Virus record (IMG/VR): IMGVR_UViG_3300022700_000225
Location: 1 to 63,760 of that record
DNA: 63,760 nucleotides
Direction: 5' to 3' (one strand)
Origin: a virus
Taxonomy: Duplodnaviria; Caudoviricetes
The position numbers and the translations under genes were made by a program. Below the pieces are notes generated by a model. It was given only the letters and a program-made list of their open reading frames with translations, was not told where the DNA came from and did no database searches. Positions within the stretch are counted from its first letter, which is position 1. Every line of letters begins with the position of its first letter. Positions 7,419-63,760 of this stretch are shown piece by piece.

Positions 7419-7438
7419 AGTAACCAGAGGATATTACA

Positions 7439-21400: not shown

Positions 21401-24400
21401 TAAAGCCAAAGGAGGAATGCGCCATAACCACCGCATCCCATTCTCCCGTGGCAATGCGACCCAAAAACTCCTGACGGTTTTTCTTGGCAAAATCCTTTTT
21501 GCCGATCACAAGGACATTGGCCCCGGGATATAGCGTCTGGAAATCCGCCGCCCATTGATCCACCAGATGGTTGGGGACTGTATACATGGGTTTTTTTGCA
21601 AGCCCCATCCGCTTCATTTCCATGCCGGCCGCGATGGCTGCAAAGGTCTTGCCGGAGCCCACAACATGGTCCAGAAGGCCCTTGCCTTTCTGGATCAACC
21701 GCCATGCCACGTTTTTCTGGTGATCCCGCAGCTGATTGTCCCGGCTCTGGCCGGCGTTGATAATGCCCATGCCGGGAAAGATCATGTGGGAGCCGTCAAA
21801 AGTTCCTTCAATTGTGGTGTTGACTTTGTCATTAAACTCTTTGGCCGCAATCTCGCGGCGGTCCATATCTTCCAGGACCCAGTCCTGAAAAGCCTTGTTC
21901 ATCCGGTCAGCCGCGTCTTTGGCAATATCGGTTTCTTTTTTGTTGAGATAGGTCTTGCCGTCATCGTCTTTGTCCCGGACAACAATTTCCCGGCCTTCCA
22001 GGTTTCTTTGAAACAGCTTCTGTGCTGACATCCGCCGGGTTGAAAACTCTGTCTCGCCGGTGGGCCGGCCAAGGGCTACATGCCATTGGTCAACGCCTTC
22101 TGCATATTTGATTGTGGCCGGCGTTTTCAGCACTTCTTCGGCAAATTGCTCGTAAATGCTTGTCGGCATCCAGGGGGTGCCGATCTTGAAAAATATTTTA
22201 TCCGGAGGGACATCTTCGGGGATAACCTTTTCCAGGGCCTTGATATTTTCGATAAAAGCCGGATCGTCCTGGGCCGCCTCTCTTGCCTCGGCCAGCTTCT
22301 TTTTGACATTGCCGGACAAATAGGTGTCCGCAGTTTCCCATGTCTCTGACGCCGGATCTTTGAAAACAAGGCCGCTCAAGTCTTTTGCGGCCTGGGCCGC
22401 AGAAGCGTCGTAAAGGTCCGCAATGCGGTCCATGCTGACCGCCCCGTCTTCGCGCAAAACAACGGCAAGGGCTTCTTTTGCGTCCTTGGCCTTTTTTACC
22501 GCCCGGTAGGGTTCTCTTGTCCGGACAGAAAAAATAGACGCTTTCTCCGCCTTTGGAGGCCGGGCCTTCTCCCCTGTCTTTTTTGCCTGGGCTTTGGATA
22601 TTCCCGGGTCAAAGTCTTTTTCCAGAGACCGCAGCAGCGGGAAGTCCGTTGGATCGTCCTTCATCAGGTCCTTGTTGGCCGGCTGATTCAGATATCCATG
22701 ATTTTTGACAAAGGCGTCATAGGACTGGTTTAATGCCTTGCGGTAATCTTGCATGCGCGGGTCATCGGCAATCTCGGCCCGGATCAGCCGCCGCACCGCG
22801 TCTCGTATTTTCATAACGCCTTTAAACCGCTCAAGCCGCTTGCCTTCCAGGGGCTTGCCGGCATGCAAAACCGGTTGAAAAACCTGCCGCCCCTCCGAGT
22901 CCGGCAGCCGGCGCACGGCCTGCCCGTTATCGTCAAGCGTATATCCGTAGGGCTTTGCAAAGCCCGGGTCTGACACAACTATTTCCGGGCGCTGCACTTC
23001 TTCAAAGGTCTGCCCCTCCTGGTAAACATTTTCAGGCAGGCGGGAAAGAGCCTTGTCCAGATCGGCCTGGGTATATGTCCCGCTTAACCCGGCAACCGCA
23101 TCATAAACGCCGTCCACCACTTTGCCGGGAAACAGCTTGTTCGGGGCCAGTCGGCCCAGCATCATTTCCGGATGATTTGCAAAATACTCATTGATCCGAT
23201 AAACAACTCCGTCTTTTTCGCTGGCGACATCCTGGAGATTTTGCCACTTGTTACCTTCAATCTTTTCGCCTTCTGCCCGTTTGCGCATAAAAACCAGATC
23301 GGTTGTAACATCTGTCCCAGCCGTGGATCGAAACGCAGTGGAGGGCAGGCGGACCGTGCCGAGCAGTTCGGCGTGCTTGTTGAGCCATTGCCGCTGTGCG
23401 CCGCCGGCTTTGTCCATCATGTGAGAAGACACCACCATGGCCAGAAGGCCGTTTGGCCGCAGGGCCTTAATGCTTTTGGCAAAGAAATAATTGTGGATGG
23501 AAAAGTTTTTCAGGTCTTTGTGTTTGGGGTCATGCAGCTTTTTAGAGCCAAACGGAGGATTGCCGACAACCGCGTCCTTGGAGTTCGGAACAATGTCAAA
23601 ATCCTGAAACGCCGTGTGGGCAAGGTTTTGATTGGGGTACAGCAGCTTGGCAATTTTTGAAGTAAGAGGATCAATCTCAGCGCCGGCAACATGGCTTTTG
23701 CTGCGCATATCGGCCGGCATCAGGCCGACAAAATGCCCGATACCGTAAGCGGGCTCAAGGATTTTGCCGCCCTTAAACCCCATCCGCTGCAGGGTGCTGT
23801 ATATACCCTGAATAATGGGCTCGTTGGTGTAGTGAGCATCCTGAGTAGTTGACCGGGCGGCCTCGTACTCTTGCTGGGTGAGCAGGTCTTTTAACTCTTT
23901 TGCCTCTGCCTCCCAGCCTTTGGCGACAGAACCGTCCGGACGGTAAAAAGCCTGGGGCAGCCCGCCCCAGCCCACATATTTGACCAGCTTGGCCTGCTCT
24001 GCAGGAGTGGCGTAACGGTCTCCGATTTCTTTAACCAGGCGGAGCGCCTCCAGGTTGTCTTTAAACTTCTGCTTGGGCCCGCCTTCCCCGATCCTGTCTT
24101 CGGCGGTGATTTTATAATCTACAGGGCGTAAAGGTCCCTGACCACCACTTCTTCCGCTTCGTAGTCCCTCATCCCGCCGTCCATCAGCTCTTCTTTCTGC
24201 TCCATCGCCTGCTCGCCCTTCATCTTGCAAAACGCCTTGAGATCCCCCGCTTTCCTGAGCCTCTTGTAAAGCTCCGGATCTCTCTCCGGAAGATTGTTCA
24301 TCAGCTGATGCGCGTATCTGTTCATCTGATACCTCCGTTTCTGTGGTTGCAGCCTTCCTTTTATCATTAATAATATCAGATATTTCGCTGGTGTCAAGTT

Positions 24401-27400
24401 CTTTTATGTTGGCCGGATCTGTCATGCCCTTGGCGTCAAAGCCGGGGTAATGGCGCACCGCCTCATACCAGCTTCGCAGATACGATTTTACCGCCTCGCC
24501 CAGATCGGCCATCATGGCCTTTGAATAGGCGGTAAAAGACCTGGCGCCGGCCTCGATATGATAGCCGGCCAGCTGAATGCCGGCCTGCACGATTTCCGGG
24601 TCCAGCCCTGTGCTGACCTGCCCCAGTTTTTTCCGGAGCAACTCCCGGGCCTTGTCTGCGGCATCCCTGGTAAAAACCGTGTTGGTTTCGCCATAGCCGG
24701 ACTCTTGGGCTCCACTTGTTTCAGCAGGAGACGCCTGCTCCTGTGCAGACGCCTCCGCGCTCTGTGTCGAAACATCAGAGGGGGTTTGCGTTTGCCCAGC
24801 CTCACCCTCGCCCAGATGGGGGGTCAGACGGTCTTTTTTGTCCTGGCTTAAATAGTCCCAAAGCGTTTTGGAAAGCTGTCCGGCTTCGGCATCAGAATAT
24901 CCTGCAGTTTTGGCCGCCTGATACCGGCCTTCACCGGTCAACTCGTTGCGCCACGCCTCTTCAGGGATTTTTGCGCTCTGCCCCTCGGTTTCGGCTGCCC
25001 GGCCAGCCCGGTCAACTTCTTCGACAAGCTGCTCGCGGGTTTTGTCCCTGGTGTCGATCCCTTCCTGTTTTGCCACCTGCCGGGCTTTCATTAGGTGGGC
25101 TCGCCAGCCGTCAGGACGGGCGGGTGCCCTTTCTTCGGCTTTGGCTGAAGCCGCCCCCTTTTCAGGGACGGCTTCGGATACCGTTTCAGCGCGTGGCTGA
25201 TCGGCTGATTTGAATCGTTCCACTTCCTCATTGGTCAGGTATTGTGTACGGCCTTTTTCGTATAGCTGTTTCGGAGACTTGACCCCGGCCTCCGGTCCGG
25301 CTCCGGGCACTACATCGACGGGGGCCTGAATCCGGACTCCGTTTTCAACAATAAAACGATTCCCTGCCTTGTCCTGGTAAACGGTCTTGCCTTCGGAATT
25401 TCTACCAACTTTGCCGAATTTTTTTCCGCCGGGTGCCGTTTCAGACAATGCCTGACCTTTGCCGCCTCCAGAATCGTCCAATTTTGCGCTTCTGGCGGCT
25501 TTGGCCTGCAAACCCGCATCTGGCGATGGTTTATAGTCGCCTTCCTCGGCTAAAATCTCATCCATGTCCTGCTGACGGTCCCGGGCAGCCTTTCTTATCC
25601 GGTCCTGGGCCGGGGTGATCCCCCGGGCCTCGCGCGGGCCTTCCAGTGAAGATTCATCCGGCAGGTCTGACAGGTCGGCGTCAAATTCGTCAACTCTGCG
25701 CCAGCCCCACTGATCGTTTCCAAGGTCCACGGGCTCGACGGCTTCCCCGGCCTTCTGCTTGTCGTGCACCAGCTTGTCAATGCCCTTTTTGGTATAGGGC
25801 TTGCCGGACTTCATCACGGCCACGGTGCCGGGCAACGGCTCGCCGGCTGACAGCTCATGGCCGGTATCAATCGTACCGGTTTCGGCCCGGGCCTCTGCGT
25901 CGGCTTCGGGCGTCCGGCCTTCTGGTTCTGCCTGGGACCGGGTTGCCGGGGCGGATTCTTTGCGTGTTGCCGGCACATCTACCGCCTGGGCAATATAAGG
26001 CTGCGGCAGGTTTCTGCCATACAGCTCATGGAGGTGATACAGGGCGTAGGGGTCGCGCTTTTTGGCGTCATTGACATGATCCCGCAGCTCGTTGACCTGC
26101 TGCCAGCCCGGGTCATTGTTGGGTTTGCCCCGCATTTTCCGGCGCATGGATTTCAGGGCGGTCTCGGCGTTAAAGATCACCTTGCGTTCGTCTTTTTTCA
26201 GGTCCGGGGCCTGGCCCTCGGCTTCCGTCAGCTGCGCGTCGGCCCGCTCCTGGTCGGCAATGTCTTTGTCCAGCCCGTCCGGAAACCGGTCCTGCTCTGC
26301 CGGAATGTCGCCCGCGGCCTGGGCCTCGGCCCTTTGCTGCCGGGCCGCCTCCTGCCGGGCAGTGAAAATTTTGGCGTCAATGCCGTCAATCTCATCCTGG
26401 ATCTTTTTCTTTGCCGCCTTGCCCCGGGCCTTCTGCTTTCTGGCAACCGCGTTGTTGCGCCGGGCCTGGAGGTTTTCCACGCGCTTTTCATATCGCGGGG
26501 CCTGCCGGGCGAGGGCTTCTGCCTGCGGCCGGGTCTCCTGCGCCGGCCCGGCTTGCGGTGCGGGCTGCTCTGCGGCTGCCGGCTCTCCCATCTGATCCAT
26601 GGCCTGCTGGTTTAGCTTTTGCCTTGCCAGAACCGGGTCATTAATTTGCTCGGTCTGCCCGGCTGCGGCCCGGGCCTGCTCGGCAACCCCCCGGTTTTCC
26701 GCCTCACCCATCAGGCGCACCATCAGACGGTTGGCCCGCTGGGCCGTGTTCTGATCCGTGCTTTGAAAAGACTGTGCGGTGGCCCCGATGGTCTCCACCA
26801 GTTCATCGTCAGACATTTCCCGGACCACCCGGTCGGTCCAGTCCCGCTCGGCCTGTCCGGCCGCCTGTGCTGTCTGCTGCGCAAGGTCTTTTTCAATGGC
26901 CTGGATCTCTTCTTCTGTGGCCCCGGCCTTCTTTGCCTCATCAATGACCTTTTTGCGCTTCTTGTCCAGGGCCTCCACGGTGCTGCGGCCAAACACGCCG
27001 CCGGCCATGCCGCCTGCCCCGGCTCCGCCGATAATGGCCTCAACAATGCCTTCGGTGAGGTTCCGGGTTTTGTCATAGCCTATCTTGGCAATCGTGTTTT
27101 GCCAGAGGTTTTGAGACGCTTCCTGCATCCCCTCTTCTGCCCCGCCGTTGGCAATGCGCTTGATTGCGCCTTCGGCCGCTTCCTTGCCGGCGCCGCCAGC
27201 CCCGGCCCGTTTCAAGATCCGGGAAATGGGTATGTATTCCAGCAGGGCGGTTCCCATGGTGGAGGCCAGGCCGACACCGGAAGCATACGCCTTTCCCTTT
27301 CCGGCCTCCCGCGCCTCTTCATACTGTGGTGCGCCTTCCAAAAGTCCAAGGGCAGTCGCGCCGCCCGCAGCCCCAATGCCTTCAGCAGAAAGCCCCTTTG

Positions 27401-44418: not shown

Positions 44419-45390
44419 TTAGCCGGTGATCATGTTGGTATGGCGCACATGAGCTTTCCGGTTGCGGCAGATCAACTGCCCGATCCAGCGCACATTGGCC
44501 ACAGCCACATCCGGCTGATCAATCGGGGACTGCCAGACCGGCTTGGTGAACTGGTAGTCCTTGTGGGTCTTGATTGAGAGAAACCGGGTGTTGAGACCGT
44601 CAATCCGTTTTTCGGTCTGATTGTCGTCGGCCACTACGGGCACGCCGGAAAACAGGATGTTCTCAAAGCCTGCCTGGGCCAGCTTGTGGTCCGAGTACCG
44701 GGCCTGCTGCTGGAGCGTGGCCTCGAACGCATCCTTGAGCACGTCAGTGGTCACGTAAATATCGGGCTTGTTGCGCCGGTTCTGGCCCACCTTGGCGGTC
44801 CGCCGCAGCTGCTGCATGGCCGCAAAAGACATGGTGGTCTCGGTGGAAAGCACATTTGCCTTCCACTCGGCCATGTTGTCTTCTGCAATGCTGCCGTACT
44901 CCTTTGAGGTGGTGGTATCAAACAGATTCCCCAGCCCCAGCATGGCCTTGGCGTCAGAAGCAGAAGCGTAAACATCAGCACCCATCTTTTTGCGGATGGT
45001 CTTTTTGATGTTTTCCAGCTTGCCGTAGGTCATCTTCACAATGGCTGCATCCCCGCTGTTCTGGACCTTGTCGTCCAGATCAATGGAGTTGGCCGCGTGA
45101 TAGCCGGCCCACCGGAAAAGGGCCGCGTTGTAGATTTCCTTTTTTGACAGCGGGATCTTGGTGGTGTTGCCGTAGGTGCCGGAGTGCGCTTCGTCATGCT
45201 CCAGGATGATCTTGATCATCTTGCCGCCGTCCACGGTCTCGCCGGAGTCGGGCCCCACCAGGTTTTCCGCCATCATGCCCTTGCCCATCAGGACATAGAG
45301 CAGCACATTTTCCTCGAAATACACGTCAATGGGCGTTTTCTCGACATAATCGTCGGTGATCGCCTGCAGTTCAGTTAAAGATAAAGGCAT
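44419..45390 (-). CDS. Major capsid protein
   Basis: 323 aa after the scaffold; strong RBS; GFENILFSGVPVVAD...W.GQLICRNR pattern. Confidence 0.88.
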   Translation of the reverse strand: MPLSLTELQAITDDYVEKTPIDVYFEENVLLYVLMGKGMMAENLVGPDSGETVDGGKMIKIILEHDEAHSGTYGNTTKIPLSKKEIYNAALFRWAGYHAANSIDLDDKVQNSGDAAIVKMTYGKLENIKKTIRKKMGADVYASASDAKAMLGLGNLFDTTTSKEYGSIAEDNMAEWKANVLSTETTMSFAAMQQLRRTAKVGQNRRNKPDIYVTTDVLKDAFEATLQQQARYSDHKLAQAGFENILFSGVPVVADDNQTEKRIDGLNTRFLSIKTHKDYQFTKPVWQSPIDQPDVAVANVRWIGQLICRNRKAHVRHTNMITG

Positions 45391-46945: not shown

Positions 46946-48994
46946 TTAAGCCCTCGCCGGTTCTGGTTGTCCCTGCTGCACAGCTTCTGTAGCGCCTCCC
47001 TGCTGCCCCTGGCCTCCCTCGCTGACCGATTTTCCGGCAGCCGGCTTGCTCTGCGCACCCTTGCCGCCCGGCGGGTTCTGGGGCCGGTTGCCCGGTCCGC
47101 CCTGAGTCTCCTGCAGCACCTGATTGAGCACCTGGGCATTGAACAGGTCATAAATACTGCCGTCACCCGGCGGCTCCTCCGGCAGCCCGGCCTGCACCAG
47201 CAGCTGAATGGCCTGGCCCATCTGCCCTTCGCCCACGCGCTCGATGATCTCCTGGGTGCGCGGAAACTCGATGGCCTCAAGATAAGCCTGCCGGTCAATT
47301 GCTCCGAGCTGATAGGCTTTTTCTGCATCGGCTCGCAGCTGCAATGAAGTCCGCGGCATAGTTGATCCGCTCTCCACCACAAAATTAAAATCCCGGTCCC
47401 GCAAATCCGTGCCCCGGAACTGTCCGATCTCTCCGGCCACCTCCACAGCCTCGGTCTGTATTGAAAACTGCTGGAGCATGGACACAAACGACTGGCCCCG
47501 AAACTCCACCAGCTCATCCACGGCGTTGATCTTTTTTTGAATCAGCACCGCATTGCGCTCCTGCAGGGCCATGATGGCCGCAGCCGCAATCACGCCGCTC
47601 GGCGCCTCGCCCCGATCTGCATCTTCGATCTGATAGATCCGGTCATAGAGGTTGACGAACATATCGAAAAAGTTGAACAGCTGCTGGGGCACATTGGGGA
47701 CCTGGACAAACCGAATCGAATCAGCCACCTGACTGTTTTTGGGCTCCAGCACCAGATTGGGCTTTGACGACACCGCAGACCTCGGAATCCCGGAGTCCTG
47801 GGGTATGATCAACGGCGGGAACATCACGCGGGAGGCCCACCCAAACATCCGGCTAAACACCTGGTCGATCTTGAGGTTGAGATCCCCCACCTGCTCGGCT
47901 GCCGAAAAGCCCCAGATGCTTGTCGGGTCTTCATAGCTGGTGCCCAGCGCAAACGGAAACCGCCAGAACAAAAAACTGTTTTGCGCGTGCTCCCGGGCAA
48001 TGTGCGGGTTGATGTTGGGATTGGGCATATCGGCCAGCAGCTTATGGCCGTTGTTTGTCACGGTGATACACCGGATATTGCCAGGGTACTTTGCCCGCTC
48101 GACTTCCGCGGTGACAATCGCCCCGGTCTCATCGTCCTGGCCCACAACCTCTTCGACCGTTTCCTTGGTATAATCCCGCACCCAAACTTCAACGATCAAA
48201 GCCCGGCGCTCACGGAAATTGCGGTCCGCAAAGTCATGCCGGATCAAAGACGCCTTGTTGTCATAATGGCCTGACGGATTGGCTACCTGCTGCTGGCGCA
48301 CCATGGCCGGCCGGTCTTCCTCCCGGTTTTCGCCCAAAATCGAGTAAACGTCAGACGGCAGAATCCCGTCCACATCATAAGCCGCTTCCACCACTTCCAC
48401 GGTTTCCGGATAGGCATGGCAGGCATAAGGCGCATCCAGGCTGATATCATCGTAATAGCCGGGAGCCGGAAAAAACGCGAAAGGATCAAGCACGGCAATA
48501 TCCGGCCGCTTCTTCTCCGCGTTCCAGTAAGGCTTTTCGATAGTGGCCCCGTAAATCTCCATCTGCAGCACGGTTGTTGACAGCTTGCGCTTTTGCCTGG
48601 AGTCTTTCCACCACTTCAACCCAGAAGCTGTCAGCTTCCGGTCGTTCTGATCCGGATCATCCCCGGACAAAGAGACAACCTCAAACTGCGGATTCCGCGC
48701 CGTGATGTTGGCCTTGGTCCGCTCCACATTGGCAAAAAACAAATTGAGCTCCACCACGTTCTGCGCGTTTTTCATCCGCTGCAGGCTGTGGGTGCCCCGG
48801 TAAAGCTGATAGTTGGTTGACCATCGCTCCGGCAGCCCAAGGCGATCCCGCTCTTCCCTGGCCAGTTCAAACAATTGCCACGCCCAGGCAGCCACATCCT
48901 TGTCGCCCTCAGGCGGTGGATTGGCGATTGTCCATTTCGGGTCCGGCATGGGCGCTGTCGCCAGTGATGCCGGGTGATCAGCCGTTGCTGCCAT
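46946..48994 (-). CDS. Portal protein
   Basis: 682 aa between terminase and scaffold; RGEAPSGVIAAAAIMALQE..., DFNFVVESGSTMP; Gln/Gly-rich tail. Confidence 0.88.
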   Translation of the reverse strand: MAATADHPASLATAPMPDPKWTIANPPPEGDKDVAAWAWQLFELAREERDRLGLPERWSTNYQLYRGTHSLQRMKNAQNVVELNLFFANVERTKANITARNPQFEVVSLSGDDPDQNDRKLTASGLKWWKDSRQKRKLSTTVLQMEIYGATIEKPYWNAEKKRPDIAVLDPFAFFPAPGYYDDISLDAPYACHAYPETVEVVEAAYDVDGILPSDVYSILGENREEDRPAMVRQQQVANPSGHYDNKASLIRHDFADRNFRERRALIVEVWVRDYTKETVEEVVGQDDETGAIVTAEVERAKYPGNIRCITVTNNGHKLLADMPNPNINPHIAREHAQNSFLFWRFPFALGTSYEDPTSIWGFSAAEQVGDLNLKIDQVFSRMFGWASRVMFPPLIIPQDSGIPRSAVSSKPNLVLEPKNSQVADSIRFVQVPNVPQQLFNFFDMFVNLYDRIYQIEDADRGEAPSGVIAAAAIMALQERNAVLIQKKINAVDELVEFRGQSFVSMLQQFSIQTEAVEVAGEIGQFRGTDLRDRDFNFVVESGSTMPRTSLQLRADAEKAYQLGAIDRQAYLEAIEFPRTQEIIERVGEGQMGQAIQLLVQAGLPEEPPGDGSIYDLFNAQVLNQVLQETQGGPGNRPQNPPGGKGAQSKPAAGKSVSEGGQGQQGGATEAVQQGQPEPARA

Positions 48995-49842: not shown

Positions 49843-49941
49843 TCAGATCCTCTCCCCCTTCGCCACCTTCTCCAGCAGCGACACGGTAAACTTCAAGCCC
49901 CGGATCAATGCCTTGATAATCTGCCTGGATTCTTCGCTCAT
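49843..49941 (-). CDS. 32-aa peptide MSEESRQIIKALIRGLKFTVSLLEKVAKGERI (not in the ORF track)
   Basis: TGATG overlap with the terL stop; amphipathic helix. Confidence 0.6.
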   Translation of the reverse strand: MSEESRQIIKALIRGLKFTVSLLEKVAKGERI

Positions 49942-51476
49942 CAATCCCCATACCCATCGTCGATATGAAAGGCGCCCGAGTTGTCCGGCGCGTTTAAAAC
50001 CACTTCCCAGTCCTGCTCGGCCTGGGTTTTGGGTTTTCGGTCCTCCGCGATAGCCAGGTGCGAAAACAGGGTGTAAGCCAGGGCGTCTCCAGCATCCGGC
50101 GAAGCCAGGCCCCGCTTTTTCATATCTTCTTTTTTCTCAAGCTGAATCCGGCCCTTGGGATCATACTGATATTCCGGGCCAATCAGATCATCGTAAAGCT
50201 CCTGGTCATCTGCCGGAATCGAACCGCCGGCCCGCAGCCATGCCAGCATGTCGCCCCACATCTCCGCCCGCTTGTTGTAATACACCAGCGGGTCACTGGG
50301 AGCATCTCCGCTAAGCACTTCAAAAATAATTGAGCCGTACCCGAGTTGCCGCAGCCGGTCAATCACGCCGGCGCCGATACCCACTGCGTCAACATTGACC
50401 GCCCTGGGGCCATACTTTTTGATTGTCTCAACCACCATGGCGGCCAGCTGCATGGTGTCCATTTTGAGAAAACGGCGAATCTCGTGCGTCTGCAAGCCCT
50501 GACGAACATAGATAACCGATTTGTCGTCGCCAAACCGGGCCACGTCCACACCGAGAACCACCGGTGCCCAATTCCAGACATGCTCATTCGGCCTGCCATA
50601 ATTGGCTTTTTGCGCTGCCTCCACCACATCGCTGGGAATAAACTGCGCAACAGAAGCCCGGGGAAACTGACCCTTGACACGGACCCGCACAAAGTCAGAA
50701 TCCTCGCCGTAGTCCTCAATCCACTGCTGGACCTGGGCCTTGTTGACCATCTTCGCTGTTCGCGAATCAATCTGCCGGGTGATCCACCGGTGCCGATACC
50801 GTCCAAAACATTCCTTGAAACGCCCGGTGTTCTGGGTCGGATTGCCAAAAGCCACCCACAAAGTTCCCGGCGTGGTCATGGCACCTTCGGCCACCTCCCA
50901 GATGATGTCGTCAATGATGCTGGCCTCATCGAACAAAAACAGCACATGGGATTCATGCGTGCCGGCAAACGCCTCTGACTTGTCTTTTGTCCAGGGGATT
51001 GCCGCCGCAAACCACGTTGACGGATGCTCGTTGTGATAAAACCGGGTCGCGGTCCACTTGAACAAATGCCCGTCCCGGGCCTTTTGGTTCCACTTTGCCA
51101 GCTCGCGCCACGTCTTGGTTTCGAGCTGATTTTTTGTGTTGGAAGTGACAACAATCTGCGGGTGCGGGCGGGTTGCCTCAAACCACTTCAAAATCCAGGA
51201 AATCAGAGCTGTTTTGCCAATGCCGTGGCCGGAAGCCACAGCCAGCCGGACTGACGCCATCTTTTCTTCGGCAGCCCCATACTCACCTGCGGCTGCCAGG
51301 CGCATGGCCTCGCCAATGTCGTTTAAAACATCGGCCTGCCACTTGTCCGGCCCCTCGCCCTTGTCAAAATCCCATTCCCAGTTGAAATACACATAGCCCA
51401 GCGGATCATAGACAAACTCCGCCAGGCACTGTATCAACTGCTCGTCCTGGGATATGTCGCGGGCCGGTTCAGCCAT
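49941..51476 (-). CDS. terL: Terminase large subunit
   Basis: ASGHGIGKT Walker A, FDEAS Walker B, GNPT, GVDVARFGDD and SPDAGDAL nuclease motifs. Confidence 0.96.
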   Translation of the reverse strand: MAEPARDISQDEQLIQCLAEFVYDPLGYVYFNWEWDFDKGEGPDKWQADVLNDIGEAMRLAAAGEYGAAEEKMASVRLAVASGHGIGKTALISWILKWFEATRPHPQIVVTSNTKNQLETKTWRELAKWNQKARDGHLFKWTATRFYHNEHPSTWFAAAIPWTKDKSEAFAGTHESHVLFLFDEASIIDDIIWEVAEGAMTTPGTLWVAFGNPTQNTGRFKECFGRYRHRWITRQIDSRTAKMVNKAQVQQWIEDYGEDSDFVRVRVKGQFPRASVAQFIPSDVVEAAQKANYGRPNEHVWNWAPVVLGVDVARFGDDKSVIYVRQGLQTHEIRRFLKMDTMQLAAMVVETIKKYGPRAVNVDAVGIGAGVIDRLRQLGYGSIIFEVLSGDAPSDPLVYYNKRAEMWGDMLAWLRAGGSIPADDQELYDDLIGPEYQYDPKGRIQLEKKEDMKKRGLASPDAGDALAYTLFSHLAIAEDRKPKTQAEQDWEVVLNAPDNSGAFHIDDGYGD

Positions 51477-52878: not shown

Positions 52879-53430
52879 CTATCCCTCGATCAATCCGGTT
52901 TCACGTTTTTTCTCTGTATCGCCGATCCCGGAAACAAGTTTCTTCAACCGCTCAGGCGCCGCGAGCTTTTGCACTTCCTCAACCATTTCCGGGCGGCCGG
53001 CGTAAGCCTGATAAGCCTCGATAAACTCTTTTCTCCACCACTTGACTTCATCCTCGGTCACATTCGGAGCCCACCGCTCCCATTTCCAACGGGTTGACAT
53101 TAGATGCGCTGTCACCGGATCTAAAAACTTGGGGTTTATGCGGCTGCCCCGCTGCTGCAGGGTTTCTAAGACAATATCTGCCTGAGCCTGGGCGTTGTCT
53201 TTATTTGAGCCGTTAATTGCTTCAAGAAACTCTGCAAAGGTGGGCATTTTGGAAATAGTCCGGGTTTTTAAAATTTTCAGAGCCGCATACCGGATCTGGT
53301 CCAGGGAGATTCCTTCGGATTCAAAACCCCGTGCCCAAATCTTGACGGTGTTGTTGTCAACCGTATCGCCAAAATTCCCGGCCAGCCCGAAAAGGATTTC
53401 AGCAAGCGCCTGCCGTTCCTGTTTATTCAT
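52879..53430 (-). CDS. Replication-associated protein (helicase loader/inhibitor-like, DUF6475-like)
   Basis: MPTFAEF and WWRKEFIEAY motifs; follows the initiator gene. Confidence 0.6.
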   Translation of the reverse strand: MNKQERQALAEILFGLAGNFGDTVDNNTVKIWARGFESEGISLDQIRYAALKILKTRTISKMPTFAEFLEAINGSNKDNAQAQADIVLETLQQRGSRINPKFLDPVTAHLMSTRWKWERWAPNVTEDEVKWWRKEFIEAYQAYAGRPEMVEEVQKLAAPERLKKLVSGIGDTEKKRETGLIEG

Positions 53431-54190
53431 CCTCGCCTCCGTTTTCGATGAAATCATGCAATACCTGGGCGTTGTGCCGCTGTTTAAAACTCAACACCGA
53501 ACCGCCCTGCCCTTTATTTTTTGGCGGATATATCCCCTGCCAGCCCTTTTCGATTGCCATGTTGATCAAGTCATCCGGCTGATGCCCCTGCTCCATGAAT
53601 TTTTCGAGCTTGTTGATATTGAGCTTTTCAGCATGGGGTGTCATAGGCTTGCCGATTCGCCTGCGGTGTGCCTTAAATTCATTCCATAATTTTTGATTGA
53701 GCCAGTCCGGATAAATCACGCTTTCCCCCTTGGGGGGGTTAGGGGGGGTATTTATTTCATTCTTACATTCTTTCTCATTCTTGTTCTTAGTGTGACCCTT
53801 TTGTTTCCTCCGTGTTTCCTCCGCGTTTCCTTCGCTGTTGCCTCCGTAATTTTTCGGATCTTGATAATAGCTGTAATTTAAAATAGTTATATATATTCCA
53901 TGTGTTGCTTTCGCCGTTTCCACCATGTTTCTTCCGCGTAGCTTCCGTAGAGATTTCGTAAGTTGCGGTTTTGAATATTTCATTTTGCGATATCCAGAGT
54001 ACCAATGCAGGGCTTCCTGGATCTCGCCCAGGTTGAAAAAACCCGTACCTCGTTTGTACTTCCCTTGATCGGTATGGTTAACCCGACGCAACAGGTAAAA
54101 CCACAACTCCCGAACCACCGGGGGCTCGTGCATAATGTCTGAATCATCGATGCATCGGGGTTGGAGGATATAGCCGCCTGGGATCGTCAC
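53423..54190 (-). CDS. Phage replication initiator protein
   Basis: N-terminal winged helix (ITILNYSYYQ), PPNPPKG linker, C-terminal WNEFKAHR...AIEKGWQGIY. Confidence 0.8.
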   Translation of the reverse strand: MTIPGGYILQPRCIDDSDIMHEPPVVRELWFYLLRRVNHTDQGKYKRGTGFFNLGEIQEALHWYSGYRKMKYSKPQLTKSLRKLRGRNMVETAKATHGIYITILNYSYYQDPKNYGGNSEGNAEETRRKQKGHTKNKNEKECKNEINTPPNPPKGESVIYPDWLNQKLWNEFKAHRRRIGKPMTPHAEKLNINKLEKFMEQGHQPDDLINMAIEKGWQGIYPPKNKGQGGSVLSFKQRHNAQVLHDFIENGGEDE

Positions 54191-54695: not shown

Positions 54696-54700
54696 TATAA

Positions 54701-54730
54701 AGCTTAAGAAATTTTTGGTGGGGTTGTCAA
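54701..54730 (-). promoter_or_regulatory. sigma70-type promoter of the leftward operon
   Basis: TTGACA-18 bp-TAAGCT. Confidence 0.6.
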
Positions 54731-54852
54731 GGAAATATTTTCGGGCTTAAAGGAGGATAATTTCCGACAACAACCAACCTGTTCAGGAGAGGGTATTTTA
54801 GCTTCTGATTTTCTGGGTTGCCTAAGCTTGGAATCAAAAGTGGAATATTTTA

Positions 54853-54881
54853 TTGACAAATTGCAAAAAACAAAATATAGA
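54853..54881 (+). promoter_or_regulatory. sigma70-type promoter of the XRE-ImmA operon
   Basis: TTGACA-17 bp-TATAGA. Confidence 0.55.
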
Positions 54882-54915
54882 GTTGATAAATCAAACAAAA
54901 AAGGAGATTGCCTTA

Positions 54916-55524
54916 ATGACTTTTTTATCCAAAACCGAAGCTGACACAATTTTACAACCTTATTATTCTGCTTTAAGCAGGACAATAGAAAAAGCCTTTG
55001 ACAGGTATAATAATTTTAAGGATAAGGTTGGACACAGTCCGAGATCTCGAGCCAGCTTGATCCATGACTTTATGGTAAATGAAGCTGAAAAAGAGTTCGA
55101 TGATATTCCAGAGGTATCAACCCATTCTTACCGGGGTCTCTTCGCCTTATACTTTCATGACAAATTGATCATTAGATTTAAAAAACTAAATAATAAATTG
55201 AAAGCGGCGAACATACCCACACAACAGGCTCTTCGGTTTGATGCCCAGGAACAGTTATCTTTATTTCCAGGAGAACCCATTGCCTTGGCAACTCTCACTG
55301 CCGGCTATGTGCCAGGTCAAGCTTGGACAAAAATTGAAAAAATAGCAATTGTATGTTGGCACAATTCCGAACTTCTCTGGTGCCTTCCGATCGAGAAAGA
55401 AGAAAAGAATGTAACAGAATTTCCGCAACAAGCCCAAAACAGCGAATTTAAACGAACAAATACATGGAAAAAACCAAAACATCTTATTAATAAAGAGATA
55501 GACTATGACACAAGTAAACAATAA
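54916..55524 (+). CDS. Hypothetical protein, putative toxin/effector partner of XRE-ImmA
   Basis: AAGGAG RBS; IRFKKL...NIPTQQA..F...LTAGY; 20-nt overlap with the next gene. Confidence 0.75.
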   Translation: MTFLSKTEADTILQPYYSALSRTIEKAFDRYNNFKDKVGHSPRSRASLIHDFMVNEAEKEFDDIPEVSTHSYRGLFALYFHDKLIIRFKKLNNKLKAANIPTQQALRFDAQEQLSLFPGEPIALATLTAGYVPGQAWTKIEKIAIVCWHNSELLWCLPIEKEEKNVTEFPQQAQNSEFKRTNTWKKPKHLINKEIDYDTSKQ

Positions 55525-56560
55525 GATGATAACACTTGCCCGGGAATCTAGGGGGTATAGCCAGCGCGAGCTTTCTCAACTTTTAAAAGTCAGCCAAGGA
55601 AAACTGTCAAAAGTTGAACAAGGCACTCTTAGCGTATCTGATGATATGCTTGAAAAAATGGAAAATTTTTTAAACTATCCCAAGAAGTTCTTTTATGAAC
55701 CCGAAAATATATACCCGCCTATTACTCCATTTCACAGAAAAAGGAAGCGCCTGTCAAAAAAAGCACAGAATTTCATAGAAGCAAAAGCCAACATATACCG
55801 AATCCATATCTCAAAAATGCAACAGTCTGCCGAACTGGACCAGGATATTATATTTTGTGATCTGGATGACTATGGCGGGCAACCGGAAAATATTGCAAAC
55901 GTACTGAGGCGGTATTGGAAACTGCCGAAGGGTCCCATCGACAATTTGACGAATGTCGTGGAACAAGCCGGAATTGTGGTTATATTTTTTGATTTTCAAA
56001 CCAATTTACTTGATGGGTTTACATTTGTCACCCCGAAATCATTCCCAATCATTTTTCTCAATAGTAAATTTCCCGGCGACAGGTTGCGTTTCACGCTTGC
56101 CCACGAACTCGGACACATTGTGATGCATCATGTACCAACTATAACAGCCGAAGACGAAGCAAATCGTTTCGCTTCTGAGTTCTTGATGCCTTCAGAAGAG
56201 ATAAAGCCGCAACTGAAAAGGCTCACCTTGGCCAAACTCGCAAACCTTAAACCCTATTGGAAAGTCTCAATGGCTGCCCTCTTGGTGAAAGCAGGGAAGA
56301 AGGGGCTCAATCTATTAACTTATAATCAGGAAAGGTATCTTTGGCGTCAAATGGCCCCATATAGGACTGTTGAGCCATTGAAGTTAGACATACCCCAAGA
56401 GCAACCTTCCTTATGGAAAGAACTAAATGAATTCCACCTAACAGAGCTTGGATATAACGAAAAAGAATTATGCGATCTCTTAAACCTATTTCCACAGGAA
56501 TACCCAAATTACTATCCTTTTCATCATAAGTTTACCAAAAAGCATTTGAGGATAGTTTGA
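55505..56560 (+). CDS. XRE HTH + ImmA/IrrE (M78) zinc metallopeptidase
   Basis: ARESRGYSQRELS..VSQGKLSKVEQG; RLRFTLAHELGH; EDEANRFASEFLMP. Confidence 0.93.
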   Translation: MTQVNNKMITLARESRGYSQRELSQLLKVSQGKLSKVEQGTLSVSDDMLEKMENFLNYPKKFFYEPENIYPPITPFHRKRKRLSKKAQNFIEAKANIYRIHISKMQQSAELDQDIIFCDLDDYGGQPENIANVLRRYWKLPKGPIDNLTNVVEQAGIVVIFFDFQTNLLDGFTFVTPKSFPIIFLNSKFPGDRLRFTLAHELGHIVMHHVPTITAEDEANRFASEFLMPSEEIKPQLKRLTLAKLANLKPYWKVSMAALLVKAGKKGLNLLTYNQERYLWRQMAPYRTVEPLKLDIPQEQPSLWKELNEFHLTELGYNEKELCDLLNLFPQEYPNYYPFHHKFTKKHLRIV

Positions 56561-56599
56561 GCTGTTGGCAAAAAGTGATAAGCTAAAAAAGTTCTTAGT

Positions 56600-56650
56600 T
56601 AAAGCACAACCCCCGGTTTGTATACATGATAGCCGGGGTTTTGTGCTTTA
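56600..56650. terminator. Bidirectional hairpin between convergent genes
   Basis: TAAAGCACAACCCCCGG...CCGGGGTTTTGTGCTTTA. Confidence 0.65.
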
Positions 56651-56664
56651 TCAAAAAAATCATA

Positions 56665-57068
56665 TTATGAATTGGCAATCCTAAAACGGCTGTCTTTCAT
56701 TATGTCTCTTGTGAGAACATGCAATAATAGGGTCGCCTGAGACTTGAAAAACCATTCGTATTTTTTAATTCGGGAGGGATGATTATCTACATCTTTTAAT
56801 GAAAATCGAAGTATCGCATCGATATTTACAGTAAAAGTCTTTTTATTTTTATCCTTTTGGCCTTTTTCATTTCCGCTAAAGCCATCGATTTGCAAAAATA
56901 CATTTACAAGCAACTCGGTGTCTGTGAATTCGAGACTAACACCCAAGTCTTTACTTACTAAGGGGGCCAAAATTAGATATACATTAAATCTAAAAATATT
57001 TTCAATTATTTTAATGTGTAATACAACCTCTTGCTATGCGTAAACTGCAAATCTAATTTTGCACTCAT
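56665..57068 (-). pseudogene. Possible SecB-like chaperone remnant (frameshifted 5' end)
   Basis: Beta-strands then ATLLLHVLTRDI helix; frame is open upstream of 56970 to a TAG, and the nearest ATG (57068) is in another frame. Confidence 0.35.
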
Positions 57069-57182
57069 TAGTAACTACAAAATTTTTTTCTTATATCTTG
57101 GCAATAATTAATTTATTGTGCCAATATTTCTAACTGTTCCAGGATTCGAGAACTATAAGCTTGAAAGAATATTTAGTAATGA

Positions 57183-57986
57183 TCATCTAAATTTTAAGGT
57201 TACAGTGAATTTAGAATAATTGACACCCTCTTTGCTAAATTGAGGTTTTCCAGAACTAACTTCCAAAGTTCCATTTTCAATCATTACCAAGGTATTGGCT
57301 AGATAAAGTCCAATGCCTTGCCCTGAAACCTTTTTACAACTCTTTGCGCCATTTCCTCGAAATCCACGGTTTATAAGGCATGAAATTTCATAGGACTCAA
57401 CCGTGGGTCCAATAGAGGATATATCTACCTTCACCCTACATCCTGTACTCGGATTGTCCGTAACAAAGATTTTTATATCCTGCCCATCTGGGGAATACTT
57501 AACAGCATTATCGATCAAAACGAAAGGCACCATCTCGAAGGCTGGCAATACGTCAATTTCATTGTGAGATGGACCTGTCAGTTGAATGTTGATTTGGCGT
57601 CTATTTGCGCTGCGAAGAAGAATATGACGAGCCTTATCGAATTTTTTATAAACCCCTGCGCTGTAGCGAGGCTGTCTTGTAATAGCTTCAGGATTAAGCT
57701 CGAAATCGGTAAATGCCAGGCGAGATGAAAGTATGCCAGATTTATAGAAGACATTACCTGCCTCTTCCGAAGCTTGCTTGTAGTCAAAGTTACTGATGTG
57801 CTTGGATATCTCTTCGCATGCATTCTCAATTTCAGAGTTCAACCTACGCGTATCGTGCATGATGCCGTCGAGAATTTTGTAAAGCCTTTGACAATCCTCT
57901 TCAGCTTTTTCAGCGGCAGCAATCGCTTCATTTCTTTCTTTTTTGAATTTCTCTATCTTACGGTTCTGCTTATCGTAGTTAATCAT
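57183..57986 (-). CDS. Sensorless histidine kinase (HisKA-like + HATPase_c)
   Basis: H-box MHDTRR, N-box IDNAVKYS, RGFRG, G2 GQGIGLYLA; no TM segment. Confidence 0.88.
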   Translation of the reverse strand: MINYDKQNRKIEKFKKERNEAIAAAEKAEEDCQRLYKILDGIMHDTRRLNSEIENACEEISKHISNFDYKQASEEAGNVFYKSGILSSRLAFTDFELNPEAITRQPRYSAGVYKKFDKARHILLRSANRRQINIQLTGPSHNEIDVLPAFEMVPFVLIDNAVKYSPDGQDIKIFVTDNPSTGCRVKVDISSIGPTVESYEISCLINRGFRGNGAKSCKKVSGQGIGLYLANTLVMIENGTLEVSSGKPQFSKEGVNYSKFTVTLKFR

Positions 57987-58641
57987 AATTTGTATAACTT
58001 TTGATGATTTGTATAAGAGATATTCTGGCGAAAGTTATTGCTATTTCCTTGATCTCCTCTGGGACCTTCTCCACTTTGAACTTGGATGCATCTCGCTTTT
58101 CAACAGCTTGGATGAATCTTTGCTCCATTTCGAATATGTCATGGAGTTCAACACCTTTTTCCAAAAGCATCTTTCGCATTCTAATCCAGCGTTCCTTTGG
58201 GTTTCCCACCTTTTCAAGCCCGTTTTCTAAGGTCGATACCCAATGCTCGGTTGGGGAATCTTTATTTAGCGAGACGTCTACGCCCTTAAGGGACTCATTA
58301 TAACTTGCGTCAAAATGCGCCCCAGTATAGGAAACGAGGAATTTGTCTGGATAGGCTTTGCGTATCTCGGATAAAAGATGAGCACCTTCAAGAGAACAAT
58401 CTAGTGCTCCTCCAACCCCTCGGATATCACAAACCACGATCGGGAATTCGGCTACTTGATCAACTGTACGGATGTCTCCAAGCTCTACAAGATTAAATCG
58501 ATGAGCGCGAAGTGCGTCGGCTTTCACGAAAGCTTCGTCGTCAATCACAGCGATCTGGTAGTGTCGCTTTAAATATGCCTTATCCTGAAGTACGACAGGA
58601 AGTGAAGATAATCGCTTGGGCTTTCCAATTTGGAAGTACAT
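57979..58641 (-). CDS. Response-regulator receiver-domain protein with helical C-terminal extension
   Basis: IAVIDD, VVCDI (phosphoacceptor), SYTG, LNKD; overlaps the kinase start. Confidence 0.8.
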   Translation of the reverse strand: MYFQIGKPKRLSSLPVVLQDKAYLKRHYQIAVIDDEAFVKADALRAHRFNLVELGDIRTVDQVAEFPIVVCDIRGVGGALDCSLEGAHLLSEIRKAYPDKFLVSYTGAHFDASYNESLKGVDVSLNKDSPTEHWVSTLENGLEKVGNPKERWIRMRKMLLEKGVELHDIFEMEQRFIQAVEKRDASKFKVEKVPEEIKEIAITFARISLIQIIKSYTNYD

Positions 58642-58796
58642 AGGATCTCCAGAAAGAGCTACACGGCAAATAAGTTACGCCATTTTTTATATCGGCCGAA
58701 CTTGCGAATAGCTTGGTTAAGCAGCCGGTTGGATTACCCCAACTGATTTTAGTATGGGTTCTCTGCACATCATCAAACACTATTGAAATTCCTTGA

Positions 58797-59006
58797 TTAA
58801 GCTAAATTTTGAACATTCGCTTGGAGCAAATCAGCCATTGCTTGAAATTCTCCCTGAGTGCCGGTGATAGTGATTGTCTTCGTTCCTGTGCGCGTCGGCT
58901 GGGTGATTGTCAATTCACCAGCGTCACGCATATGCTCGATATCGCTCTGATCAAGTGTGACCACATGGGGGCCTTCGCTTGTACTGTATCTCACTTCAAT
59001 TCTCAT
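58797..59006 (-). CDS. Small hypothetical protein downstream of cI
   Basis: AAAGGAGG RBS; 69 aa. Confidence 0.7.
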   Translation of the reverse strand: MRIEVRYSTSEGPHVVTLDQSDIEHMRDAGELTITQPTRTGTKTITITGTQGEFQAMADLLQANVQNLA

Positions 59007-59061
59007 CGGTCCTCCTTTAGGTTATTCTGACGCCCTTGTACTTTATTATGCTTTAAATCTT

Positions 59062-59859
59062 TTAAGCCTCCTCCAAATCCCGCCACATCCAAACCACCCG
59101 GCCGATGACAAGATCGTTCCATTCCGCGTCCGTGATGATGGGAAGGTGGTCCCGGTTTTCGCTCACCAGGGCGAACCCCTGGAATCTTTCCTGCTCGATT
59201 TTCCGGACCCGCTTGACCATGGACACCGGGCTTGACGGGTCCGGGTCCCTGGGGTCCCTGACCGCGTAAATTTTTTTGTCAATACACTCCCTGTCATTGA
59301 GATCCACCACAACGATGGACCCGGCCGGCATGATCGGCTCCATGGAGTCGCCGCCGATTCTCAGGGCTCTAAGATCGTGGCGGACCCTGCCGTGAAGCTC
59401 GGGCCGGTAAACCACCACCGTGGACTCGGGGATTTCGTTTTCATCAAAGGTGTATCCGCCAGAAAAGGCGGCCAGTTTTCCGGATTCGTACAGGGGGACG
59501 CCGCGGTAATGATCGGCGTGTTCTTCGAGGTGGATTTTTTCAAAGCCGTTGAGGACTTCGACGACGAGGTTTTGGTCTGAATGCGAAGTTGATGAAGATT
59601 TTTTTTCCTGAAGACCAATCATTTCTTCATACGAAACGCGGATATATTCAGCAACCTCTCTTCTCCATTTTTCGGTGCTTCCCCTTCTTCCTTCAAATAT
59701 AGCATTAAGTGTTGATTGGCTGACCCCAAGATCTTTCGCAAACTTCGCCTGTGAAACCCCTTTGTTTTTAATCTTTTCTTCAAAGTGGTCCCTGAGTTTT
59801 TTCCCGAAATATCTTTCTATCTCGGTAATTTTTGTGTCTGGGAGCTTTGGTCTTTTCAT
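59062..59859 (-). CDS. cI: CI-like repressor (XRE HTH + S24 autopeptidase)
   Basis: SQAKFAKDLGVSQSTLNAI; GDSMEP (Ser) and MVKRV (Lys); divergent from cro. Confidence 0.92.
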   Translation of the reverse strand: MKRPKLPDTKITEIERYFGKKLRDHFEEKIKNKGVSQAKFAKDLGVSQSTLNAIFEGRRGSTEKWRREVAEYIRVSYEEMIGLQEKKSSSTSHSDQNLVVEVLNGFEKIHLEEHADHYRGVPLYESGKLAAFSGGYTFDENEIPESTVVVYRPELHGRVRHDLRALRIGGDSMEPIMPAGSIVVVDLNDRECIDKKIYAVRDPRDPDPSSPVSMVKRVRKIEQERFQGFALVSENRDHLPIITDAEWNDLVIGRVVWMWRDLEEA

Positions 59860-59933
59860 TACAGATTGTAATACCACAAGCTTTAATTACAATGTGTGAT
59901 TTTTTTATTGACATATTAATTACAATTTGTAAT
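59858..59933. promoter_or_regulatory. Lysis-lysogeny switch: three operators ATTACA-N3-TGT(A/G)AT and divergent promoters
   Basis: Operators at 59858-59872, 59886-59900 and 59919-59933; TTGACA at 59908-59913. Confidence 0.85.
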
Positions 59934-63176: not shown

Positions 63177-63760
63177 AAACTTCAAGGGCGTCAAAAGCCT
63201 TTACCTGGATCTCCAGGGCTGCGACGCGGCCGTCTACGGCAGCAACGCCACCGGAAAGACCACAATTTACGACGCCTTTCTGTGGCTATTGTTCGGCAAG
63301 GACTCCCAGGGAAAGGCGGATTTCGACATCAAAACCCTGGACGAAAACAACAACCCCATATCCGGCCTGGAACACGAAGTCGAGGCCGAGCTGGATATCT
63401 CCGGCGAGGCCCTCACCCTCAAAAAAGTATTCCGGGAAAAGTGGACCAAAAAGAAGGGCGCGGCAACCCCGGAATTTACCGGCAACACCACGGAGCATTT
63501 CATAAACGGCGTGCCGGCAAAGAAAAAGGAATGGGACGCCAGGATAGCCGAAATCACAGATGAGGAAACCTTCAAGCTGCTTACCGGCTCCAGGTATTTC
63601 AACGAGCAGCTCCACTGGCAAAAGCGCAGACAAATCCTGCTTGCTGTTTGCGGGGATGTGCCCGACGCGGACGTGATTGCCAGCAAACAGGAGCTGTCGG
63701 AGCTCAAAGACATTCTCGGCAACCGCTCTTTGGAGGATCACCGCAAGATGATCGCGGCCA
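63142..63760 (+). CDS. SMC/Rad50-like ATPase, N-terminal part (continues at position 100 on the circle)
   Basis: Translated by hand: MKTIRLNNLRLKNFKGVK...GSNATGKTTIYDAFLWLLFGKD (Walker A); open to the contig end; absent from the ORF track. Confidence 0.9.
   Translation, partial: MKTIRLNNLRLKNFKGVKSLYLDLQGCDAAVYGSNATGKTTIYDAFLWLLFGKDSQGKADFDIKTLDENNNPISGLEHEVEAELDISGEALTLKKVFREKWTKKKGAATPEFTGNTTEHFINGVPAKKKEWDARIAEITDEETFKLLTGSRYFNEQLHWQKRRQILLAVCGDVPDADVIASKQELSELKDILGNRSLEDHRKMIAA
63662..63760. repeat. 99-bp terminal direct repeat, right copy
   Basis: Identical to 1-99. Confidence 0.97.

Follow-up and report, generated by a model that had tools for sequence, protein, structure and literature searches.

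Why would a temperate phage carry a histidine kinase without a sensor domain next to a receiver protein without an obvious output? This question is raised by two adjacent genes on the minus strand of the IMG/VR virus record IMGVR_UViG_3300022700_000225, which comprises 63,760 bases, was analysed over its entire length and is referred to here as the window. An original prediction, made from the DNA sequence, described the two genes as a phage-encoded, cytoplasmic two-component pair and offered three possible functions, i.e. anti-phage defence, tuning of the lysis-lysogeny decision or cross-talk with host signalling. The observations in this prediction are confirmed by our analysis and its interpretation is supported in part. 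Most likely, the cassette serves in defence against phages and is not a conventional regulator of gene expression and, in more specific terms, we lean towards the explanation that the pair is a prophage-carried phosphorelay module for defence or exclusion, which would be expressed by the lysogen as cargo directed against competing phages.

Receiver and kinase retain the residues of a His-to-Asp relay

The receiver protein consists of a short conserved N-terminus (residues 1-28), a CheY-like receiver domain (residues ~29-147) with the phospho-site residues D34 D35, D72, T106 and K127, and a family-specific helical tail (residues 148-220) in which W152, R156, E173 and Q174 are conserved. The protein has no match in Pfam even at E<=1 and none among PDB sequences. 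Its AlphaFold2 model (pLDDT 90.0, pTM 0.87) displays a CheY-like fold of five units, to which three helices are appended, i.e. the arrangement of DD/D/T/K residues and helical tail that had been predicted. D72, S/T106, K127, W134 and W152 are kept in all 68 receiver homologs and the acidic pair D34/D35 in 66, the other two having gaps in fragments. Thus, the receiver fold, acidic pair, phospho-accepting Asp, Thr/Ser and Lys of a classical two-component system are all present. The family is large and uniform in size: 63 of the 68 homologs have a length of 216-237 aa and a profile of the receiver family identified 1167 clusters (defined at 50% identity) at E<=1e-3, of which 707 reach E<=1e-10 and 244 reach E<=1e-30. 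The majority of the 150 best clusters are full-length and similar in size to the receiver.

No output domain as in a classical two-component regulator was recognised in the receiver, and the tail matches no Pfam family. The VIA and Foldseek match lists for the receiver protein were filled by the receiver domain. With the tail (residues 148-220) as query, a structural search of the Atlas returned only its own family above TM 0.8 and a profile search of PDB sequences returned nothing below E 0.06; Atlas matches of the tail at TM ~0.5 to parts of transposases and hydrolases were not trusted. ANTAR, HPt and LuxR-type helix-turn-helix (HTH) domains were rejected as identities of the tail, none being found in Pfam at E<=1 and the tail having no conserved His. 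A membrane-inserting C-terminal helix is not favoured either, since the window's protein stays below a hydropathy of 1.6 and this helix is confidently placed within the bundle by the model; in the family, 21 of 63 C-termini lie above this value. Neither Pfam nor the Atlas, in searches in which the tail was never folded alone, detected an HTH or other DNA-binding domain in the receiver. To this extent the prediction that the pair has no DNA-binding output holds; the tail may contain a cryptic DNA-binding fold.

The receiver and kinase genes overlap by 8 nt (57979..57986, minus strand), with the receiver stop and the kinase start in the junction ATGATTAA, and are probably translationally coupled. 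The kinase has a Pfam HATPase_c match (6.1e-9) and no Pfam HisKA match. In the structure model (pLDDT 91.6), a helical hairpin (residues 4-65 and 69-97) precedes an alpha/beta ATPase domain, and a Foldseek search with this model identified HK853, YycG, CusS and other cytoplasmic kinase cores (best E 4.5e-14; 345 matches at E<=1e-3). The kinase contains H44 (in MHDTRR), the N box residue N160, R210 and the G2 box G222-G226, and has SSIGP (residues 190-194) in the place of the DxGxG motif. It therefore possesses the helical dimerisation hairpin bearing a phospho-accepting His that characterizes classical two-component kinases. A sensor input domain is absent from the model, in which a coiled coil is all that precedes H44, again as predicted. 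No stretch of 19 residues in either protein reaches a hydropathy of 1.6 (maxima 1.25 and 1.44), i.e. there is no membrane-like segment and both proteins are predicted to be soluble.

Residues were counted in 59 kinase homologs; the seven weakest of 66 hits were left out and taken for ordinary kinases because four of the seven carry Pfam HisKA. H44, N160, K163, Y164, P194, R210, G222 and G224 are invariant, G226 is present in 58 of the 59 homologs, and the residue following H44 is E or D in all of them. The position of the G1 Asp is occupied by Ser (S191 in the window's kinase) in 56 homologs, by Asn in three and by Asp in none, and alignment with solved kinases puts S191 opposite the adenine-binding G1 Asp. 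Of the N, G1 (DxGxG) and G2 boxes of the classical ATPase domain, the kinase thus keeps N160 and the G2 glycines and departs at G1. In kinases of the HisKA type, Thr or Asn at position His+4 is needed for phosphatase activity. Here, only 5 of 59 kinases have Thr/Asn at this position and, if the rule holds for this family, the kinase may be a one-way switch. Mean conservation is 0.44 in the N-terminal coiled coil (residues 1-38) compared to 0.56-0.60 elsewhere, and because these residues are the least conserved, a variable contact with the trigger may be expected there.

The conservation of the phosphorelay residues across distant relatives is far beyond chance. We conclude that the chemistry is under selection, and the invariant residues would argue for a working His-to-Asp relay. 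The predicted complex of kinase and receiver scored 0.08 and was used neither for nor against this idea.

The original prediction held that longer sensor N-termini in homologs would make the window's kinase a truncated protein. The kinase is not a truncation, because 50 of the 59 homologs are equally short (249-272 aa); extended proteins do occur among nine more distant homologs (~25-33% identity), which have 325-367 aa and an N-terminal extension of ~95 aa that is Cys-rich in the five long-form kinases aligned. Long-form partner kinases of 325-380 aa (P0117, P0120, P0122, P0124, P0127; loci L012-L015 and L018-L021) have four conserved Cys in this domain, and a weak hint of zf-TRAF_2 (0.0078) was obtained for it. 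This domain, which is missing from the short kinase of the window, is likely a zinc-binding sensor.

The pair is a self-contained and mobile cassette

Using the receiver profile, we fetched 21 related loci, 15 on genome contigs and six on viral contigs. In 21 of 21 loci, two of which are clipped by contig ends, a kinase relative follows the receiver directly, on the same strand and within a few bases, and the same receiver-then-kinase adjacency is found on a conjugative plasmid and in E. coli. An all-against-all comparison of 281 open reading frames (ORFs) within 7 kb, together with the genes of the low-GC island around the window's pair, demonstrated that only the receiver and the kinase recur across loci; the exceptions are the near-identical L020 and L021 and four two-locus matches, three of which are among the viral loci L016, L017 and L019. 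No third gene is conserved with the pair, and neither the repressor nor the 69-aa and 101-aa ORFs that accompany it in the window recur in the 21 other loci. The GC content of the pair is below that of its flanks in all 21 loci, by 4.8 to 24.5 points, and this low GC content suggests recently acquired cargo. In total, receiver and kinase form a cassette of two genes that is complete in itself and horizontally mobile.

The occurrence of the cassette is sporadic. When 401 genomes of one carrier's class were sampled, the pair was present in two, one of them the carrier itself. A single occurrence was found among 50,697 phage records and a single one among 72,556 plasmids, on a conjugative Phaeobacter plasmid with the kinase gene adjoining. 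The named carriers belong to Xanthomonadales, Burkholderiales, Halomonas, Francisella-like bacteria, Verrucomicrobia, Bacteroidales and a candidate-phylum bacterium, and bacterial chromosomal copies make up the majority of relatives with named sources.

The genomic contexts of some relatives are informative regarding function. On one viral contig (L018), a relative whose receiver is 38% identical to that of the window lies between a Psu-like gene and an integrase, and its 1733 bases recur with 100% identity in 4 out of 5426 complete genomes of E. coli. In one of these, FORC_081, the order is primase-helicase, Icd-like, ogr/Delta, polarity suppression protein, hypothetical protein (218 aa), ATP-binding protein (358 aa), integrase and tRNA-Leu. 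In both settings, the interval from psu to int of a P4-like satellite contains the receiver/kinase relative as its sole annotated cargo. The psu-int interval of E. coli P4-like satellites has been described as a reservoir of anti-phage systems, in a report the accessible main text of which makes no mention of a histidine kinase, a receiver or the present cassette (PMC9122126). In FORC_081, genes annotated as 'sce7725 family' and 'sce7726 family' are located just past the primase end of the satellite (L119, positions 564-2344).

At other loci the neighbors vary, and phage-borne copies again occupy places expected of cargo. An integrase lies directly downstream of the pair in three of the six viral loci (L017, L018 and L019), the pair comes after a lysis amidase in L020 and L021, and in L016 it is flanked by a DNA methylase on one side and an N-like antiterminator on the other. 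On a Herbaspirillum contig (L006, positions 7403-9867), a reverse transcriptase (RVT_1 3.3e-21) is encoded directly upstream of the pair, and a pooled PADLOC scan of the flanks yielded a type III-A retron reverse transcriptase with a PRTase partner that probably derive from this contig. Counted per family, the 109 ORFs in the flanks of the 21 loci include five integrases, TniQ/TniB, a Psu protein, parts of type I, type II and type IIG restriction-modification (R-M) systems, represented for type I by methylase and specificity subunits, and DrmMII.

Effector domains fused to the receiver in rare relatives

Five over-length hits among the best 150 receiver-profile clusters were scanned for extra domains. 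P0191 and P0240 carry an N-terminal TIR domain of the CAP12/Pycsar type (PF10137, 3e-32 and 2.9e-33), P0191 also matching the CBASS TIR effector (2.3e-50) and PycTIR (2.8e-39) in PADLOC, and P0148 has two hydrophobic, membrane-like segments at its N-terminus. All three proteins, each of which is a singleton cluster, retain the receiver residues and the tail. TIR domains and membrane helices are classic cell-suicide effectors. Because the effectors are N-terminal when fused and no fusion has lost the tail, the phospho-switch itself seems to be the unit made up of receiver and tail.

The pair itself could be placed by means of PADLOC. The receiver matches PDC-M43A (2.9e-14, residues 19-139) and the kinase matches PDC-M43B (1.6e-17, residues 155-266), i.e. 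both models of the PDC-M43 system are matched by adjacent genes; the other PADLOC matches of the pair are weak and to the JetC coiled coil only. The statement in the original prediction that the pair cannot be assigned to a named system is therefore superseded, as these matches make the pair a relative of a catalogued candidate.

The carrier phage and the surroundings of the pair

The window is the whole virus record, for which the completeness estimate is 100%. An exact direct terminal repeat of 99 bases (positions 1-99 = 63662-63760) indicates that the genome is complete and either closed or terminally redundant; the early operon seen at the right end runs on at the left end. The window is the complete genome of a temperate tailed phage (Table 1), which corroborates that the pair is phage-encoded. 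A megablast of 24 kb of the phage against the 50,697 phage records gave no match, and no relative of its repressor was found among the viral contigs.

Table 1. Features of the window, with position, strand and basis of the assignment.
Feature	Position	Strand	Basis
Integrase	4878-5909		
Major head protein	44419-45390		
Portal	46946-48994		
Large terminase	49941-51476		
O-like/DnaD-like replication protein	53423-54190		
Strong hairpin between the convergent pair string (leftward) and the RmrA-like gene (rightward)	56601..56650	.	Folding energy
101-aa ORF, function not assigned, 196 nt 3' of the kinase	56665..56970	-	ORF list
Sensor-less histidine-kinase core, 267 aa	57183..57986	-	ORF list, structure model, PADLOC PDC-M43B
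Receiver protein, 220 aa	57979..58641	-	ORF list, structure model, PADLOC PDC-M43A
69-aa ORF, function not assigned, between repressor and receiver	58797..59006	-	ORF list
cI-type repressor, HTH and S24 self-cleaving peptidase	59062..59877	-	Pfam Peptidase_S24 1.7e-10, HTH_3 1.2e-6

The repressor is the first gene of a leftward string in the order repressor, 69-aa ORF, receiver, kinase, 101-aa ORF and hairpin. The coordinates, the overlap of the two genes and a low-GC island (54700-59060, 39.5% GC) all conform to the original description of overlapping receiver and kinase genes in an AT-rich island 3' of cI. The 1-kb intervals at 55001-58000 have a GC fraction of 0.376-0.392 versus 0.44-0.63 in the remaining ones, and the pair has 41.8% GC versus 54.7% in the rest of the window. 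For the 69-aa ORF, neither Pfam nor PHROG gave a match at a useful E, and the 21 related loci contain no homolog. The 101-aa ORF is not conserved with the pair and thus is probably outside the cassette. The hairpin has a minimum free energy of -25.2 kcal/mol (z -5.18), which was equalled by none of 200 shuffles; it is a possible two-way transcription stop, with a U-tract that is not canonical.

The same low-GC island contains a second candidate defence module (54853-56560, plus strand), convergent with the string that includes the kinase and receiver genes. It encodes a 351-aa HTH and M78-peptidase protein that matches RmrA (PADLOC 2.4e-58; Peptidase_M78 6.1e-22, HTH_3 2.1e-9), which we take to be the RosmerTA antitoxin, and this gene is preceded by an overlapping 223-aa ORF without family, a possible toxin partner. 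Elsewhere in the window, the late region contains a single ORF of 5247 aa (12438-28181, minus strand) with Eco57I-like methylase, SNF2/ResIII helicase, LPD23, LPD3 ('large polyvalent protein') and ART-PolyVal ADP-ribosyltransferase (2e-23) domains, which, judged from these domains, looks like a giant polyvalent anti-restriction protein that is probably injected. The early arm encodes a 1113-aa N6 DNA methylase fused to a type I specificity domain (7439-10780, plus strand) and a D12-class Dam-like methylase (3693-4520, plus strand); these two genes are additional self-protection or conflict genes.

Discussion

Combining the anatomy of the two proteins with the behavior of the cassette and the fusions in relatives, we suggest the following model. 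The soluble kinase would dimerise via its helical hairpin, and a cue generated upon infection would act on the kinase, the candidate contact being the N-terminal coiled coil (residues 1-38). The kinase would then autophosphorylate H44 using a nucleotide pocket without the usual adenine-binding Asp, and the phosphoryl-group would be transferred from the kinase to D72 of the receiver. The phosphorylated receiver would switch state through its conserved tail, probably by assembly or target binding, and phage growth would stop. In the rare fused relatives, the same receiver-plus-tail module would drive the N-terminal TIR domain or membrane helices. Assembly is the general way in which TIR effectors become active and, for this reason, phosphorylation-driven assembly through the tail is the output that we prefer. 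In the unfused form, including that of the window, the assembled receiver itself would have to bind or sequester a target, and this is the weakest step of the model.

Of the three functions offered in the original prediction, anti-phage defence is by far the best backed, i.e. by the relationship to PDC-M43, the placement between psu and int, the effector fusions and the mobility of the cassette. The setting in the window points in the same direction, in that the pair is downstream of the repressor and shares its strand, belongs to a complete temperate phage and lies beside the RmrA-like gene. Tuning of the lysis-lysogeny decision and cross-talk with the host fit poorly, because the cassette is also found in satellites, on a conjugative plasmid and in chromosomes without a conserved partner gene.

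Several observations weigh against a defence function. Expression of the pair in the lysogen is deduced from its position downstream of the repressor, and the absent G1 Asp leaves open whether the kinase, as judged from its sequence, would bind ATP at all. A search of public sequencing runs listed none from RNA and one from DNA, the latter with a word share of 0.05. The window's two proteins contain no recognisable effector domain, and the 93 loci fetched from metagenome and viral contigs with patterns from the TIR parts contained nothing but TIR proteins, relatives of the receiver or the kinase being absent from all of them. The flanks of the related loci are mixed and include metabolic genes (TPP enzyme, PhyH, SHMT, G6PD), and the counts of defence genes come without a control set. 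The PDC-M43 matches are confined to the cores of the two proteins (profile positions 71-195 of 203 for A and 233-341 of 347 for B), the receiver tail and the kinase N-terminus falling outside the matched positions, so that neither match is full-length. Finally, we found no published phenotype for the family or for PDC-M43 in the literature searched, supplements being outside its scope, and no study of the family, also when searching with the two E. coli protein accessions.

Four other explanations deserve attention. The pair could be a selfish addiction module similar to toxin-antitoxin systems, in which the kinase is harmful when unbuffered, the receiver is a phosphate sink and the pair stabilises its carrier element without a dedicated anti-phage role. 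We consider this unlikely. The module has the right architecture, being composed of two probably translationally coupled genes of low GC content that are highly mobile and have no third partner, and a role as phosphate buffer has been proposed for DtcB, the stand-alone receiver of Detocs, in the accessible text describing that system (10.1101/2023.01.24.525353). However, receivers fused to TIR domains or membrane helices indicate a triggered effector rather than a buffer, and the placement in the P4 psu-int hotspot favors defence. Moreover, many addiction modules also defend, so that this explanation overlaps with the one that we prefer.

The location of the pair in the immunity region, directly 3' of the repressor and on the same strand, would be expected if it fed a cytoplasmic cue into maintenance of the repressor or induction and in that way regulated the lysis-lysogeny decision of the carrier phage. 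This is quite unlikely, given that in the 21 other loci the repressor and the 69-aa and 101-aa ORFs are not beside the pair and that the cassette is carried by P4-like satellites, a conjugative plasmid and chromosomes; in addition, no DNA-binding domain was detected, and the GC content marks the pair as recently acquired cargo. It is improbable that the pair serves in counter-defence or host take-over by interfering with two-component signalling or phosphorelay defences of the host, e.g. as a decoy into which phosphate is drained. Defences of the phosphorelay type are known, Detocs among them, the pair is phage-encoded and the same phage has conflict genes including that of the polyvalent protein with ADP-ribosyltransferase and methylase domains; however, the relatives with named sources are mostly bacterial and chromosomal, the position 3' of the repressor suggests expression in the lysogen rather than early in the lytic cycle, and fusions to suicide effectors make no sense under such a role. 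That the pair is a decayed relic without current function, with a pseudokinase as suggested by S191 in place of the adenine-contacting Asp and by the failure to find a sensor or effector domain, is very improbable, because the Ser/Asn at this position is family-wide (59/59) beside invariant H44, N160, K163, Y164, R210 and G2 glycines, the catalytic residues of the receiver are invariant and the family comprises 244 clusters at E<=1e-30, which together indicate purifying selection and not decay.

For the defence module that we favor, two odd features stay unexplained, i.e. that the G1 Asp is lost in the whole family and that there is no obvious effector. A bolder proposal, which we regard as rather doubtful, is that the cassette is the smallest phosphorelay immune system so far, consisting of a sensor-less kinase and a receiver whose helical tail or phosphorylation-driven assembly is the effector, that the receiver-plus-tail unit, as the TIR-fused and membrane-fused relatives would show, is a general phospho-activated switch for suicide effectors, and that the kinases have a new mode of nucleotide binding or use a nucleotide other than ATP. 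The use of such a nucleotide, if true, could tie immunity to a nucleotide pool that is disturbed by phages, and the loss of the G1 Asp throughout the family would inform how ATPase domains of the GHKL type recognise nucleotides. Since E. coli has a relative of identical architecture in the hotspot of its P4 satellites, the defence hypothesis can be tested directly with standard strains and phage panels.

Comparison with known systems

In position, the pair resembles rexA-rexB of phage lambda, two exclusion genes directly 3' of cI that are on the same strand as cI and expressed in the lysogen; the likeness is limited to position and the chemistry is entirely different. The TIR domains fused to two receiver relatives are of the same type as those of CBASS Cap12 and Pycsar PycTIR. 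In these two effectors the TIR domain is switched by cyclic-nucleotide sensor domains, whereas the adjoining module in the relatives is a phospho-receiver, and the window's own receiver protein has no TIR domain. Like the receiver described here, cREC is a divergent receiver in phage conflict systems that is missed by standard models. In the accessible part of its description, cREC belongs to NAD/ADP-ribose conflict systems and never occurs with histidine kinases (PMC7824862), whereas the receiver of the present family has an adjacent kinase in 21 of 21 loci.

Detocs (DtcA/DtcB/DtcC) is a validated anti-phage system that uses His-to-Asp phosphotransfer and, in the text available, has three genes, for a kinase whose sensor is a TPR, a receiver that acts as a buffer and a second receiver bearing PNP or another effector at its C-terminus (10.1101/2023.01.24.525353). 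The swappable effectors on the receiver of Detocs, as far as they are described there, are mirrored by the TIR-fused and membrane-fused relatives. By comparison, the window's pair has only two genes and lacks TPR, buffer and effector domain, and the effectors of its relatives are N-terminal. No Dtc model was among the window's PADLOC matches, in a library whose inclusion of Detocs models was unchecked. In the literature searched, Detocs is the only validated phosphorelay-based anti-phage system. If the cassette defends, it would be a second and much smaller phosphorelay design for defence, and one without obvious sensor or effector that is carried by phages, satellites and plasmids.

The closest relationship is to PDC-M43. 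PDC systems are 145 untested candidates that, in the accessible text of the report, were discovered by virtue of their location within BREX, DISARM or type I R-M loci (10.1101/2024.01.29.577857); the pair in the window is neither embedded in nor beside such a locus. As in PDC-M43, to the extent that this entry of PADLOC-DB v2 is described, the pair is a mobile two-gene cassette in the order receiver-then-kinase, relatives of which sometimes lie beside R-M or DISARM genes. It differs in that the 85-aa C-terminal helical tail of the window's receiver falls outside the matched profile and in that the window's kinase lacks the ~95-aa N-terminal domain of the long forms. The long-form relatives match the same PDC-M43 models, likewise over the cores only. 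Because the matches are limited to the cores, the present family is best treated as a sister of the modelled PDC-M43 family, and we read the C-terminal helical tail of the receiver as the sequence feature that would mark it off. In this framework, the pair represents the short form of a large family that is allied to the candidate system PDC-M43, and it is carried by a phage.

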